Shown here: in pieces, positions 8,797 to 14,700 of the stretch
How positions within the stretch are numbered: the first letter of the stretch is position 1
How the letters are laid out: each line of letters begins with the position of its first letter
Assembly (NCBI GenBank): GCA_947624275.1
Contig: CANQJR010000001.1
Coordinates: 1,064 to 65,063 of the forward strand
Direction: 5' to 3'
DNA: 64,000 bases
DNA from: an uncultured Bacilli bacterium
Lineage (GTDB): Bacteria > Bacillota_I > Bacilli_A > RF39 > UBA660
Position numbers and translations under genes: made by a program
The notes under the pieces: model-generated
Seen by the model: the letters and a program-made list of their open reading frames with translations, nothing else
What the model was told of the DNA's origin: nothing
Databases searched by the model: none

Positions 8797-9534
8797 ATGC
8801 TAAAAATTGATGATTTATCTGTCGAAGTTGATGAACGTGACATTTTAAAAAATTTTGAAATGTCTATTGGCGATGGCGAAATTCATGCCTTGATGGGACC
8901 CAATGGAACTGGTAAGAGCACTTTGTCAAAAGTTATTATGGGTTGTCCAGATTATGTCTTAAAAAGTGGAAAAATTTACTTTAATGGAGAAGACATAACC
9001 GATTTGGAAGTTGATGAGCGCAGTCGCAAAGGGATCTTTTTATCCATGCAGTCACCCATCAGCATCGAAGGTGTTTCCAACAGCGAATTTTTGCGCACGG
9101 CATTGAATGCGCGCAGTTCTGAACCGATTCAATTGTTTGATTTCATCAAGATGATGGAAAGCAATATGCAAGAATTAGACATAAAAAATGACATCGTTCA
9201 CAAACCGATCAATGAGGGAAGTAGTGGGGGAGAGCGAAAGAAAAATGAAGTTCTCCAAATCAAAGTTTTAAAACCGACCCTAATCATTTTAGATGAGGTC
9301 GATAGTGGTCTCGATGTCGACAGTTTAAAAGTCGTTTGTAATAATATTAATAAATATCGTGAAGAAAATCCTAAAGTATCTATTTTGATCATTACACACT
9401 ATGCAAGAATTTTGGAATACATCAAACCAGATTATGTCCACGTCATGGTCGATGGTAAAATCGTCAAGACCGGTGATTATGATTTGGCTTTGGAAATTGA
9501 TAAGACCGGTTATACTGAATGGGTAAATTTGTAG
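8797..9534 (+). CDS. sufC: Fe-S cluster assembly ATPase SufC
   Basis: Walker A GPNGTGKST; SufC-type motifs; first gene of a suf cluster. Confidence 0.9.
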   Translation: MLKIDDLSVEVDERDILKNFEMSIGDGEIHALMGPNGTGKSTLSKVIMGCPDYVLKSGKIYFNGEDITDLEVDERSRKGIFLSMQSPISIEGVSNSEFLRTALNARSSEPIQLFDFIKMMESNMQELDIKNDIVHKPINEGSSGGERKKNEVLQIKVLKPTLIILDEVDSGLDVDSLKVVCNNINKYREENPKVSILIITHYARILEYIKPDYVHVMVDGKIVKTGDYDLALEIDKTGYTEWVNL

Positions 9535-9535
9535 T

Positions 9536-10252
9536 ATGTTAAATTTAAATGTTAATAATAGAGATGCTTTAGAGGATATAATTATTACTGAGGACACTAT
9601 CTTAAAAATTGATTTGGATAATTGTTCTAAAGAAATAAATATAGATGTCATGGATGACATGTGTTTAGAAGTACTAGAAATGGATAATCATACTTCTAAC
9701 GTCATCAATTATAATTTGCGAAGCAATGCACAAGTGATCGTCAATAAATTGGCACGCGATTGTAGTGATACTACTAATGTCACTTTGAGTGGAGATAATG
9801 CCAGTATTAAATACTATTCAAATATTATGAATTTTGATGATAATATTTACACTTTTAAAACGCTACATAAGGCCAATTGTACTAGTAGTGATATATATAA
9901 TTATTGTGTCAACTTCACTAATAGTTCATTTAAGTTTCTAATCGATGGTAAAATTGAAAGAGAGACTGCGGAATGCTATTGCAATCAAGATAATAAAATC
10001 ATTGATATGGCTAATGGTGACAATGCCATTTGTCCTAATTTATTAGTTGATAATGATATGATCAATGCCAATCATTCTGCTTATATTGGCAAGTTCAAAA
10101 AAGATATCGTTTTCTATATGCAAAGTCGTGGTTTGTCAAAACGAGATTGTGATTTCTTGTTGATCAAAGGTTTTTTATTAGGAAAGATGCAACTGGATGA
10201 TAGAACGTTAGAGGAGTATACAAACTTCGTTCAAGACAATGTTGAGTGGTGA
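9536..10252 (+). CDS. sufD: Fe-S cluster assembly protein SufD (short form, 238 aa)
   Basis: Located between sufC and sufS; C-terminal FLLIKGFLLG SufB/D-type motif. About half the usual SufD length. Confidence 0.6.
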   Translation: MLNLNVNNRDALEDIIITEDTILKIDLDNCSKEINIDVMDDMCLEVLEMDNHTSNVINYNLRSNAQVIVNKLARDCSDTTNVTLSGDNASIKYYSNIMNFDDNIYTFKTLHKANCTSSDIYNYCVNFTNSSFKFLIDGKIERETAECYCNQDNKIIDMANGDNAICPNLLVDNDMINANHSAYIGKFKKDIVFYMQSRGLSKRDCDFLLIKGFLLGKMQLDDRTLEEYTNFVQDNVEW

Positions 10253-10257
10253 TAAAA

Positions 10258-11454
10258 ATGAATAGAGAAGATTTTCCAATGTTAAATGACGAAATCGTTT
10301 ATTTCGATAATAGTGCTACTAGTTTTAAACCGCAATGTGTTATCGAGGCGATGAATGAGTACTATACTAAATATTCGGCTAATGCCCATCGTGGGGACTA
10401 TGACATCAGTTTACGCGTCGATCAAGAGTATGAAAGAGTGAGGACAAAAGTCAAAGAATTGATCAGCGCTCAAAGAGATGAAGAGATCGTTTTTACCAAG
10501 GGGACAACTGATGGTTTAAATATGGTAGTCTTTGGCTATATGGCTAAGTTCTTACAAAAAGGCGATGAAGTTTTGATCAGTAAAAGCGAACATGCTTCCA
10601 ATGTTTTGCCGTGGTTTGTCTTAGCTAAAAAGAAGGGAATCGTCATCAAATATATTCCTTTAGATGCGGACTATTCTTTAAATGTGTCGGCAATTGAACC
10701 GATGATTACGGAGAAAACCAAAGTCATTTCTCTTGCTCATGTCACTAATGTCATTGGTGATGTTCGCGATGTTGATGCGATTGGTGAAATCTGCATGAAG
10801 CATGATATCTTGTTCGTCGTTGATGCTGCCCAAAGCATTGGACATATGAAAATAGATGTGCAAAAAAGTCATATCGATTTTTTGGCTTTTTCGGCCCATA
10901 AGATGTTGGGACCAACTGGTGTTGGAGCTCTCTATGGCAAATATTCGCTATTGAATGATATGGATCCAGTTATATATGGCGGTGGTATGAACGCTTTCTT
11001 TGAAAGTGATTACAGCTATGAACTAAAAGAGGTCCCTTGGAAGTTTGAAGCAGGGACTCCCAATATTGCCGAAGTGATAGGAATGGGAAGAGCCATTGAT
11101 TATCTTCAGGAGATGGGTTTGGACAAAATACATGAATATGAAATGCATTTAAAAGAGCTGGCCATTGCCCAATTAGAGAAGATTCCCAATATAAAAGTTT
11201 TTAATAAAAAGGCAGAAAGTGGTATAATAACTTTCAACATCGATAAAGTGTTCAGTCAAGATGCAGTCATCTTTTTAAATAGGTTTAAAATATGTGTTCG
11301 CAGTGGCAATCACTGTGCCAAAATCTTGAAAGATGAAATCGGTGTTACGAATACTTGTCGTGCCAGTTTTTACTTTTATAATACCGAGGAAGAAGTTTTA
11401 AAATTGGTAGAGGCATTAAAATGTCAAGATAAAATTTATGATAATATCATATGA
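10258..11454 (+). CDS. sufS: Cysteine desulfurase SufS
   Basis: PLP-lysine motif FSAHKMLGPTGVGALYG; class V aminotransferase; RBS GGTGA before ATG 10258. Confidence 0.9.
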   Translation: MNREDFPMLNDEIVYFDNSATSFKPQCVIEAMNEYYTKYSANAHRGDYDISLRVDQEYERVRTKVKELISAQRDEEIVFTKGTTDGLNMVVFGYMAKFLQKGDEVLISKSEHASNVLPWFVLAKKKGIVIKYIPLDADYSLNVSAIEPMITEKTKVISLAHVTNVIGDVRDVDAIGEICMKHDILFVVDAAQSIGHMKIDVQKSHIDFLAFSAHKMLGPTGVGALYGKYSLLNDMDPVIYGGGMNAFFESDYSYELKEVPWKFEAGTPNIAEVIGMGRAIDYLQEMGLDKIHEYEMHLKELAIAQLEKIPNIKVFNKKAESGIITFNIDKVFSQDAVIFLNRFKICVRSGNHCAKILKDEIGVTNTCRASFYFYNTEEEVLKLVEALKCQDKIYDNII

Positions 11455-11465
11455 ATTGAGGTGAT

Positions 11466-11894
11466 TTGATGGATGAAAAGTTAAAGCGCGATATCATTTT
11501 GGAACATTATCAGAATCCTTATCACAGAGGACTTATCGATGACGATAGATATGTCAGAGTCAACAGTCGTAATGCTTCTTGTGTCGATAATATCGATGTC
11601 ATGGCTCTAATCGAAAATGGTGTCATCGTCGATGCTAGATTCGATGGTGAAGCTTGTGCCATTTGTACTTCAGCAACTTCCGTCATGTTGAAAACTTTGA
11701 TCGGTAAGACTGTCGAAGAGGCCGAAGTGATAATTGCTAATTTTAACAATATGATCAATGAACAAGAATATGATGGATCTAAATTGGCTGAATTGAATGT
11801 CTACGATACTATTTATCGTCAACCAAATCGTAAGACTTGTGCTCTATTGCCTTTTAGGGCTATTAAAGATATAATTGATTCAAAAAAAAATTAG
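11466..11894 (+). CDS. sufU: Fe-S cluster scaffold SufU (IscU/NifU-like)
   Basis: GEACAICTSATS active-site region; RBS GAGGTGA. Confidence 0.85.
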   Translation: MMDEKLKRDIILEHYQNPYHRGLIDDDRYVRVNSRNASCVDNIDVMALIENGVIVDARFDGEACAICTSATSVMLKTLIGKTVEEAEVIIANFNNMINEQEYDGSKLAELNVYDTIYRQPNRKTCALLPFRAIKDIIDSKKN

Positions 11895-11918
11895 ATATAT
11901 AAATTGGAGGTTTTGTTT

Positions 11919-12332
11919 ATGAATAATTCATTAAAAATTTATCGTACAAAGGATTTAGATATGGTGGCTGTTAGAAAATATAGTGGTGAAGAAAACGGTA
12001 TGCACGTTTGGATTTTCCAAGGGTTTGACTTCGTCAAGAATGATGGTGTTGGTCATGCTGCAAGCGTCTTGGAAGATACTGATTACCAATATTTACCAAT
12101 GATTGAAGATGAGAATAGTCTCAATCGTGGTAGATACATCCATGCGGGATTAAAACTTGGGGACATTCGCATAGTAGGCGATGTTCCTGAACATATGAAT
12201 CCTCTTCGCTGTTCTATTTTACCATTCATATCTAACAAATCATTAGTGAAGTGGATTGAAAAACATCCCAATATTTCTTTTGTACACGATGAGAGAGATG
12301 TAGGAAAAGTAAAAAAACTCGGTTCGAGATAA
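11919..12332 (+). CDS. Hypothetical protein inserted between sufU and sufB
   Basis: 137-aa ORF with RBS GGAGG; no recognisable motif; same strand and tight spacing inside the suf operon. Confidence 0.5.
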   Translation: MNNSLKIYRTKDLDMVAVRKYSGEENGMHVWIFQGFDFVKNDGVGHAASVLEDTDYQYLPMIEDENSLNRGRYIHAGLKLGDIRIVGDVPEHMNPLRCSILPFISNKSLVKWIEKHPNISFVHDERDVGKVKKLGSR

Positions 12333-12347
12333 ATATAGGAGGAAATT

Positions 12348-13658
12348 ATGGAAATTGTAGGAATTGATGAAAAAAAAGTCCAACAGATTTCACAGATTAA
12401 GGCTGAAGATGATTGGGTTTTAAAATATAGATTACAAAGTTATAAGAATTTCTGCAATTTGGATATGCCTGATTTTGGTCCTGAGTACGATTTGGATTTT
12501 GATCAAATAATCTATTATAAAAACAATGAAGATGAAAAGATGACGAGTGATTGGAATCAAATTGATAACGATATTAAATGTGAATTGTCTTGTTTGGGTG
12601 TCTTGGAGAGTGAAAAGCATTTAGATGGTATGGGAGTTCAGTACGAAAGTGAAGTCATATATCACAATATGCTTGAGGAATTGAAACAAAAAAATGTCAT
12701 TTTCACTTCAATTGAAGAGGGAATGAAAAAATATCCCGACATCTTCAAAAAATATTTTGGCAAAATTGTGACCAATGCTGAGAACAAGTTTGCAGCTCTG
12801 AATGGGAGTGTCTTTAGTGGGGGAAGTTTTATTTATATTCCACCTCATACTAAATTAGATCGTCCTCTCCAAAGTTATTTTCGCATCAATTCCCGTGGAA
12901 TGGGACAGTTTGAGCGCACTTTGATCGTCGTCGATGATTATAGTGATTTACATTACGTCGAAGGGTGTACAGCTCCGATGTATAGCGATTCTTCTCTTCA
13001 TGCAGCCGTCGTCGAAATATACGTTGGAAAACATAGCAAATGTCGTTATTCAACTATTCAAAACTGGGCTCATAACGTTTTAAACCTAGTTACTAAAAGA
13101 GCTCTTGTCGAAGAAAATGGAACGATGGAGTGGATTGATGGTAATATCGGTAGCAAAGTGACGATGAAATACCCATGTTGTGTATTAAAAGGTGATAACA
13201 GTTCCGGTACTTGCATTACCATAAGTGTAGCTACTGATGGTCAACAACAGGATAGTGGTGCGAGAATGATCCATTTGGGTAAGAATACTAAGAGTAATAT
13301 CATTTCTAAAAGTATTGCGCGCAGTGGTGGTAATGCTAGCTATCGTGGCAAAGTTGACATCAAAGAGCAAGCATTCAATAGTGAAGCAATGGTTAAGTGC
13401 GATACATTGATTTTAGATCACAATTCTAAAAGTGATACTTATCCAACCAATATTTGTCGCAATAGTTCTAGCAGTCTCGAACATGAAGCAACGGTTTCTA
13501 AGATTAGCGAAGAAAAATTGTTTTACATGATGAGTCGTGGCATTCCTAGAGAAAAAGCCATTGAGTTAATCGTTTTGGGCTTCATCGAACGCTTTCGCGA
13601 AGAGTTGCCAATGGAATATGCAGTTGAACTCAATCAATTGTTAAAAAATAATTTATAA
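12348..13658 (+). CDS. sufB: Fe-S cluster assembly protein SufB
   Basis: Strong SufB similarity along its length (e.g. GQFERTLIVVDD, KHSKCRYSTIQNW); RBS AGGAGG. Confidence 0.9.
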   Translation: MEIVGIDEKKVQQISQIKAEDDWVLKYRLQSYKNFCNLDMPDFGPEYDLDFDQIIYYKNNEDEKMTSDWNQIDNDIKCELSCLGVLESEKHLDGMGVQYESEVIYHNMLEELKQKNVIFTSIEEGMKKYPDIFKKYFGKIVTNAENKFAALNGSVFSGGSFIYIPPHTKLDRPLQSYFRINSRGMGQFERTLIVVDDYSDLHYVEGCTAPMYSDSSLHAAVVEIYVGKHSKCRYSTIQNWAHNVLNLVTKRALVEENGTMEWIDGNIGSKVTMKYPCCVLKGDNSSGTCITISVATDGQQQDSGARMIHLGKNTKSNIISKSIARSGGNASYRGKVDIKEQAFNSEAMVKCDTLILDHNSKSDTYPTNICRNSSSSLEHEATVSKISEEKLFYMMSRGIPREKAIELIVLGFIERFREELPMEYAVELNQLLKNNL

Positions 13659-13758: not shown

Positions 13759-13785
13759 AAAGCATCATTTGTGATGCTTTTTTTG
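13759..13785 (+). terminator. Rho-independent terminator of the suf operon
   Basis: AAAGCATCA-tttg-TGATGCTTT perfect 9-bp stem followed by a T-run. Confidence 0.7.
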
Positions 13786-13819: not shown

Positions 13820-14155
13820 ATGTTAAATCAGGTGGTTTTGGTTGGAAGATTAGTTCGCGATCCCGAACTAAGAACGACGGAGAGTAACAAAAGTGTCACG
13901 ACAATTACTCTAGCTATTCCGCGCAGTTTTAAAAATATGAATGGCGAATATGATACGGATTTTATCGATTGTGTTCTCTGGGAAAGTACGGCTAAATCGA
14001 CTAGTGAATATTGTCATAAGAGTGATATTGTAGGAATTAAAGGTCGAGTTCAAAATCGAGTTATCGAAAAAGATAATGAAAAAAAATATTTGACAGAAAT
14101 AATCGCAGAAAAAGTTACTTTTTTATCCAGTACGACTAAAAACGAAAAAGAATAA
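13820..14155 (+). CDS. ssb: Single-stranded DNA-binding protein (short, SsbB-like)
   Basis: LVGRLVRDPELR...ITLAIPRSFKNMNGEYDTDFIDCVLWE OB-fold signature; 111 aa with no acidic tail. Confidence 0.8.
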   Translation: MLNQVVLVGRLVRDPELRTTESNKSVTTITLAIPRSFKNMNGEYDTDFIDCVLWESTAKSTSEYCHKSDIVGIKGRVQNRVIEKDNEKKYLTEIIAEKVTFLSSTTKNEKE

Positions 14156-14277
14156 TATTACCATTAAAATAATCTAATTTATGACCCAATAAATATGAAA
14201 AGACACTTTAATAGTGTTTTTTTGTGTTTTGAATAAAAAAGTGTTACAATTGAATGGATAGAAGAGAGGATAGGAAA

Positions 14278-14700
14278 ATGCGTTTAGAAAAAAATTTTAT
14301 TGATGAAATCAATCATGATGATGTCGCTTTAGAAGCAAATTTAAAATGTGAGTGTGGAAGCCAAATCTTTACTATTGTGCATACTGGTAAAGAGAAAAAA
14401 AGTTTGTTTGGCGGAATTTCTTTAGTTAAAAAAGATGATCAGATACGAATAAAAGCTCTATGTCAAACCTGTGGTAAAGAGTTTGTTCTCTATGATAGCA
14501 CTGTAGATGGAAATAAACCAAAAGAAGCACCTATCGCAGAATATGTGAAGTTAGTCATCAAAGATAAAGATGCTTTTAAAATCAATATGAAATACAATTT
14601 TATGAAAGAAAATTTTAAAACAGATCGTTTTGAAGGTATTGCTATAGATGTTCAGGATGATGCTTCTAAAAAAGAGAGACGTATCTATGAAGAGTTATAA
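14278..14700 (+). CDS. Hypothetical protein with a CxC...CxxC zinc-ribbon-like motif
   Basis: Cys residues at CEC and CQTCG; start chosen after the RBS-like AGAGAGGA; no family recognised. Confidence 0.45.
   Translation: MRLEKNFIDEINHDDVALEANLKCECGSQIFTIVHTGKEKKSLFGGISLVKKDDQIRIKALCQTCGKEFVLYDSTVDGNKPKEAPIAEYVKLVIKDKDAFKINMKYNFMKENFKTDRFEGIAIDVQDDASKKERRIYEEL

Follow-up and report, generated by a model that had tools for sequence, protein, structure and literature searches.

The window, as we call the whole 64,000-nucleotide stretch analysed here, carries a SUF operon that contains one additional gene of an undescribed kind. All genes of the operon lie on the forward strand. The first of them, sufC (8797..9534), encodes the ABC ATPase (Pfam ABC_tran) and has orthologues in the same slot in all related loci. 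It is followed by a short sufD (9536..10252, 238 residues), whose product is covered by SUFBD_core at profile positions 91–232 of 232 only and scores 59.8 bits against the NCBIfam sufD model TIGR01981, which has a cut-off of 222; by sufS, the cysteine desulfurase gene (10246..11454; Aminotran_5, E = 2e-134); and by sufU (11469..11894, with an alternative TTG start at 11466), which encodes the zinc-type sulfur-transfer protein and in whose alignment C38/D40, C63 and C124 are invariant. The final gene is sufB (12348..13658), encoding the scaffold subunit (SUFBD_core, E = 1.5e-79). Between sufU and sufB lies the gene of a 137-residue orphan protein, referred to as X below (11919..12332; ATG 11919–11921, TAA 12330–12332). 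The initial annotation had described it as an open reading frame with a good ribosome-binding site (RBS), on the same strand as its neighbours and separated from them by short spacers, and this description holds: a GGAGG motif precedes the frame, and the spacers measure 24 nt from the sufU stop to the X start and 15 nt from the X stop to the sufB start. The proposed identities of the two neighbours are likewise confirmed by profile matches, to the TIGR01994 equivalog for sufU (106.3 bits, where the cut-off is 92.5) and to TIGR01980 for sufB (592.9 bits).

The GGAGG of X, read from the sequence, occupies 11906..11910 (+) and ends 8 nt 5' of the ATG. A mechanical list of open reading frames opens X at TTG 11904, 15 nt before the ATG; ATG 11919 is taken as the start because the TTG overlaps the RBS and because the homologues all begin at the equivalent methionine. 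The sufB gene has its own RBS, AGGAGG at 12337..12342 (+), likewise read from the sequence, which is kept 3' of X in related loci. X has the same GC content as the neighbouring genes, and no repeats beyond chance flank it. A consensus scan found a terminator-like hairpin with a T run at 13759..13780 (+), 3' of sufB, a pattern match with a predicted function; it is the sole terminator-like hairpin between 8100 and 14900. No such hairpin occurs within the operon before the end of sufB, which counts in favour of a single transcription unit. Promoter-like matches around the operon are no commoner than in shuffled sequence, and an Rfam scan of the whole 64 kb window detected no family at the gathering score, and no tRNA, rRNA, riboswitch or leader.

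Directly downstream of sufB, a short gene for SSB is found at 13820–14155 (+). The ssb gene follows sufB across the wider lineage (loci L003, L004, L010, L012–L014, L018, L020 and L043), relatives that have no X included, and SSB is 108–130 residues long wherever genes had been called or their starts could be defined. A second orphan, a 148-residue frame at 14254–14700 (+), lies between ssb and the gene of a P-type ATPase; it has a CxC...CxxC pattern (C32, C34, C70, C73) and no Pfam match. Loci L012 and L013 also hold frames of 139–159 residues between ssb and the ATPase gene.

X is a genuine protein-coding gene under purifying selection. Searched exhaustively with phmmer (HMMER), 1.84 billion cluster representatives yielded 13 proteins in addition to X, 12 of them stand-alone, 118–152 residues long and at 28–49% identity. 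Homologues at 25–46% identity have length and motifs conserved. A word-indexed search of 5.8 billion proteins with X alone as the query returned only X itself. The thirteenth protein, P0010 (2187 residues), was rejected as a surface protein with Big_2 repeats whose match is a repeat artefact. Another sequence, P0009 (152 residues), matches X over its first ~70 residues only, the remainder being of low complexity and probably the product of a frameshifted assembly. In the X alignments, residues Y21, G23, W31, Y56 and G81 are invariant and R19, F33, Y36, D37, G45, S49, H75, R84, K130 and K132 nearly so. A strongly conserved motif, VRKYxGxEDGxHxWTFLGYD, spans residues 16–37 in an N-terminal β-hairpin, and its alignment block extends to ...YDxV; further motifs are YDHxGxxxGDIR (73–84) and FLHY (~121–124), and the protein ends in a basic tail, KVKKLGxK (KVKxLGxK in the alignments). 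An RBS of the GGAGG/AGGAG type is kept 5–9 nt 5' of the X start in 14 loci, and X and sufB lie close together.

Nei–Gojobori estimates of dN/dS for X are 0.32, 0.23 and 0.075 in close pairs and 0.58 in one more distant pair, compared with 0.08 for sufU and 0.04–0.09 for sufB. The ratios of X are below 1 and above those of sufU and sufB; selection on X is thus purifying, though clearly more relaxed than on its neighbours. The suspicion that the frame might be spurious is not borne out, since X is conserved in relatives at the amino-acid level with dN/dS below 1. AlphaFold2, supplied with an alignment of 19 sequences, produced a model with a pLDDT of 86.6 and a pTM of 0.79, in which a long β-hairpin (residues 13–25 and 28–41) is accompanied by several short strands, a helix (106–115) and a disordered basic tail. 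The model computed from the single sequence is poor (pLDDT 38.6).

The initial annotation had found no recognisable domain in X, a single cysteine and no CGC motif of A-type carriers, and on all of these points the analysis agrees with it. X has no match in Pfam, NCBIfam, PHROGs or PADLOC, and none was obtained with Pfam and NCBIfam for 22 family members or with Pfam for the divergent subfamilies described below. The cysteine is C98, and it is not conserved: members carry 0–3 cysteines at non-aligned positions, 6 of the 22 in the alignment lack cysteine altogether, and no cysteine is shared by the family. The charge is not consistent either, with pI values across the members of 5.2–9.3. Searches of the PDB by sequence, run with the single protein and with a profile, yielded no match below E = 0.2; local similarity to the C-terminus of the Hbp autotransporter (E = 0.23) was dismissed as a hairpin-like coincidence. 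Foldseek comparison of the X model with the PDB gave a best E of 0.8 and TM values of at most 0.27 (among the best 50 of 296 matches), and comparison with the viral folds of BFVD gave a non-significant best E of 0.09 with a TM of 0.15. To our knowledge, every established Fe-S accessory protein has a solved structure (SufA/IscA, SufE/CsdE, SufT/DUF59, Nfu, frataxin/CyaY, Fra, IscX, BolA and ferredoxins). As Foldseek matched none of them (best 50 of 296 matches), X resembles none of these proteins at a level that Foldseek detects.

Several specific assignments were considered and rejected. X is not a split-off part or duplicate of SufB, SufD or SufU, for which hhalign gave probabilities of 0.3%, 0.2% and 0.1%, respectively. 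The three C...CGC ligands of an A-type carrier (SufA/IscA, PF01521) are absent, with no match to that profile. Membership of the SufE/CsdE acceptors (PF02657) is contradicted by the absence of a conserved cysteine and of any Pfam, PDB sequence or fold match, and that of SufT/DUF59 (PF01883) by the failure of every member to match at E ≤ 5 and of the model to find a PDB fold match. Frataxin/CyaY (PF01491) and Fra/YdhG (DUF1801) were rejected on the lack of a Pfam match and the pI range, and frataxin does not appear among the best 50 of the 296 Foldseek PDB matches. An origin as a phage, defence or mobile-element gene was rejected as well: searches of PHROGs and PADLOC, composition and repeats are all negative, and no relatives of X were found in INPHARED (phage), PLSDB (plasmid) or IMG/VR.

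In Gram-positive bacteria the canonical gene order is sufCDSUB (Yokoyama et al. 2018, as cited in PMC8593673; PMC4934914), and the literature searched describes no gene between sufU and sufB. In every X member whose context could be read, on metagenomic contigs from several samples and in three metagenome-assembled genomes (MAGs), the arrangement is sufU–X–sufB, so that the arrangement seen in the window is reproduced in related genomes. The complete operons that could be read are always sufC–sufD(234–243 residues)–sufS–sufU–X–sufB. A position fixed in relatives is a classic signature of functional linkage, in this case to the SUF machinery. No copy of X turned up at another site, whether among the 1.84 billion cluster representatives or in the genomic contexts that could be read. 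The three MAGs, an uncultured Bacilli bacterium (rabbit), the Bacillota MAG SIG201 and a Bacilli MAG (goat rectum), were identified when an alignment of a closer subset of X was run against 185,579 species-representative genomes, and all three share the wider neighbourhood of the window, prsA–HIT–suf–ssb–...–P-type ATPase. The other contigs with X are metagenome assemblies with no recorded source, among which study codes such as STEW18-1 and XIEF21-1 look like ruminant gut. X is restricted to one clade of herbivore-gut Bacilli (rabbit, goat, rumen) represented by MAGs only. We propose X as an undescribed family of stand-alone proteins of ~118–152 residues, encoded between sufU and sufB, with an N-terminal hairpin motif [VI][RK]x[YF]xG...[WL]xFxxY and, in the C-terminal tail, F[LF]xY...KVKK; the X of the window has all of these features. 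The profile and fold searches agree with the earlier suggestion that X lies outside any described family.

X has the lowest identity to the window protein of all the operon's products, 29–43%, compared with 77–89% for SufB, 66–74% for SufU, 60–80% for SufC, 64–73% for SufS and 35–65% for SufD, so that no other gene of the operon evolves as fast. Its mean pairwise distance is 0.65 against 0.25–0.42 for the Suf proteins, and its rate was put at two to five times that of any Suf protein. To collect loci with and without X, metagenomes were scanned with SufU as the anchor, and six-frame reading frames were then annotated with HMMs. In L017, L018, L019, L022 and L027, sufU adjoins sufB with a gap of a few to ~30 nt and no X, and L020 has a spacer of ~45 nt with no reading frame. 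In two further loci, the slot between sufU and sufB is occupied by frames of 142 residues (L021) and 124 residues (L015) with marginal similarity to X (hhalign E about 2–4e-4). A profile search showed both forms to be conserved subfamilies, P0023–27 (142 residues) and P0028 (124 residues), and the former was found again in the order sufU–X–sufB–ssb. These subfamilies do not keep D37, H75, D82 and R84, which are candidate ligands in the core family; they retain the hairpin scaffold ([VI][RK]x[YF]xG ... FxxY) and the KVKK of the C-terminal tail. The divergent 124-residue X of L015 (4307–4681) overlaps with its 3' end the start codon region of sufB by ~20 nt (ATGGAGCTTATTGGACTTAA...), an arrangement that, as read from the sequence, suggests translational coupling.

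The neighbour-joining tree of SufB, computed with bootstrap, contains a core X clade (100%) and a sister clade (92%) that unites L003, with an X of 118 residues, L021, with a divergent X, and the X-less L017 and L018; within it, L021, L017 and L018 group together at 99.5%. The X-less outgroup (L019, L020 and L022) is at ~58–61% SufB identity. In a tree of concatenated SufC, SufS and SufU, L015 with its 124-residue form is basal to the core clade (100%). The simplest history would comprise one gain in the ancestor of the clade, episodic bursts of divergence and one clean secondary loss. The nesting of the X-less L017 and L018 within an X-bearing clade means that the SUF machinery works without X, which is maintained and yet evidently dispensable. 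If X is an accessory factor, its fast evolution, its loss and the unkept ligand residues make it a dispensable and non-catalytic one.

The lineage has further peculiarities in its suf genes. SufD is 234–243 residues long in the window and in L003, L007, L009, L012–L015 and L021, about half the usual size, and 200–223 residues long in more distant relatives. The idea that X compensates for the short SufD was rejected, as equally short SufD proteins occur in relatives that have no X; the short SufD is more widespread than X, and the two are not tied together. In L019, L020 and L022, a sufU–sufB pair is present with no sufCDS upstream, and such pairs in related uncultured Bacilli often lie beside a SpoVS-like gene. 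Conversely, L030, L031 and L035 have sufC, a short sufD, sufS and sufU with unrelated genes next and no sufB downstream. Loci L023–L026 also belong among the related Bacilli with unusual split suf arrangements.

IscX and CyaY are small cysteine-free proteins that bind and tune the desulfurase–scaffold complex. Together with Fra, they offer a likeness to the proposed X in that they are small, lack cysteines and tune the desulfurase–scaffold step, but X has no sequence or fold match to them in the PDB (Foldseek, best 50 of 296 matches) and no consistent acidity, and unlike X they are broadly distributed and slow-evolving. Fra (YdhG) is the frataxin-like protein of B. subtilis, which works with SufS–SufU according to PMC4934914 and is unrelated to X. 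In function, the closest parallel to a dispensable helper linked to suf is SufT, which is small, stand-alone and auxiliary, as X is proposed to be. In Staphylococcus and Mycobacterium, SufT is often encoded beside sufBC and is needed when the demand for Fe-S clusters is high, as stated in PMC4982691 and PMC9045647. X shows no sequence or fold likeness to SufT and has no conserved cysteine; its slot between sufU and sufB is strictly fixed, its range is tiny and its evolution is far faster. The SufE and SufU shuttles, which act between SufS and SufBCD (PMC8593673), are encoded in suf operons like X, whose slot is the very junction of SufU and SufB. They need an invariant cysteine (in SufU also zinc ligands), whereas X has none that is conserved and no similarity to the SufU profile, and a bona fide SufU is already present in the operon. 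The A-type carriers (SufA/IscA/ErpA), at ~110–130 residues and often encoded in suf or isc operons, resemble X in size and setting, but their C-X(n)-C-G-C ligands and Fe-S_biosyn Pfam domain are absent from it.

That X is co-transcribed with the suf genes, binds Suf proteins and affects Fe-S assembly is something we infer, and its assignment to Fe-S assembly comes from gene neighbourhood (synteny). The invariant slot, the conserved translation signals and the sole terminator-like hairpin after sufB together imply that X is made with SufU and SufB and in proportion to them. The reading we favour, at roughly even chances of being correct, is that X has no catalytic activity and docks on the SufS–SufU/SufBCD machinery as an accessory subunit, adaptor or modulator. 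The gene would have been gained once, by the ancestor of the herbivore-gut Bacilli clade, and then fixed between sufU and sufB, where it would be expressed as part of a sufC-D-S-U-X-B transcript. The protein would act by protein–protein contact through its conserved β-hairpin and basic KVKK tail, either at the hand-off from the SufS–SufU pair to SufBCD or on the scaffold itself, and would tune the process without being a carrier of sulfur or of a cluster. As the family shares no cysteine, the usual ways of relaying persulfide or ligating a cluster are closed to X itself. Moreover, the divergent subfamilies keep the hairpin and the KVKK and lose D37, H75, D82 and R84, a pattern to be expected of a binding protein more than of an enzyme or a metal site. 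Several observations count against an adaptor: X evolves fast, with the one pair at a dN/dS of 0.58, it was lost in the nested L017 and L018, and it is absent from the outgroups and from all well-studied Firmicutes. A search for the Suf partner of X by mirror-tree and partial-correlation analysis singled out no partner. In a more specific form, which is possible but on balance doubtful, X would be a clade-specific SUF subunit of unmatched fold that docks on SufU or on SufB/SufD by hairpin augmentation and its tail and gates the persulfide hand-off. X would then be a sixth component of the Suf system, a recent invention in reduced-genome gut Bacilli with a half-size SufD.

Alternatively, X could be a lineage-specific passenger with a function outside Fe-S assembly, kept in the operon for strong constitutive expression and because its excision would risk polar effects on the essential sufB. 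Such a role would agree with the fast and episodic evolution of X (29–43% identity against 77–89% for SufB, with P0023–27 and P0028 barely recognisable), its clean loss in L017 and L018, the lack of traits of an Fe-S factor (no conserved cysteine, no acidic surface) and the absence of a partner signal in the mirror-tree test. We nevertheless consider it unlikely, because the slot is invariant across a clade in which SufB has diverged to ~74% identity, X occurs nowhere else in the cluster representatives and contexts searched, selection on it is purifying and the signals for translational coupling to sufB are retained. The least credible explanation, that X is a chance frame or what is left of a mobile or selfish element (a homing endonuclease or toxin–antitoxin gene, for example), could point to the missing domain and the orphan status in the word-indexed search. 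It is at odds with homologues of conserved length and motifs, with dN/dS below 1 and a kept RBS, with the confident AlphaFold2 model, with native GC content and no flanking repeats, and with the empty PHROGs, PADLOC, phage, plasmid and IMG/VR searches, and hardly deserves belief.

Two further possibilities keep X within the SUF system and give it a different task. X may donate or chaperone iron, or serve as an adaptor for electrons or a cofactor, acting through E25/D26, D37, Y21, Y56, H75 and D82. Such donors are unidentified for the Gram-positive SUF system (PMC8593673), PMC4934914 makes the unrelated B. subtilis Fra a partner of SufS–SufU, and the core family does keep D37, H75, D82, R84 and several aromatic residues. 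These candidate residues are not conserved in the 142- and 124-residue subfamilies at the same locus, however, the pI is not consistently acidic, and no PDB fold or sequence likeness to frataxin/CyaY, Fra, IscX, ferredoxins or flavodoxins was seen (Foldseek, best 50 of 296 matches), all of which makes a donor role quite improbable. X might instead regulate the suf operon or the activity of SUF, for example as an autoregulatory nucleic-acid binder or a brake on SufBCD. Such a regulator would suit Gram-positive bacteria that have no SufR, given that suf regulation is unidentified in most Gram-positives (PMC8593673), and the long β-hairpin and conserved lysine-rich tail of X might serve in such a capacity. 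Yet Pfam and NCBIfam reveal no HTH and no known DNA- or RNA-binding domain, the net charge is not consistently basic, and a place in mid-operon between two structural genes would be unusual for a regulator; we regard this role as very improbable.

The importance of X as a SUF adaptor or modulator is bounded by its occurrence in a few uncultured herbivore-gut lineages, its dispensability and a link to Fe-S assembly drawn from its genomic setting. Within these bounds, X bears on questions that are open for the Gram-positive SUF system, namely the hand-off from SufU to SufBCD, the iron and electron donors and the regulation of suf (PMC8593673). Its place at the sufU/sufB junction makes it a natural handle on the SufU-to-SufBCD step, and its family is small, previously undescribed and lacks a structural neighbour. 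More generally, the locus illustrates how an ancient and essential operon can absorb a new gene and then rapidly remodel or discard it.
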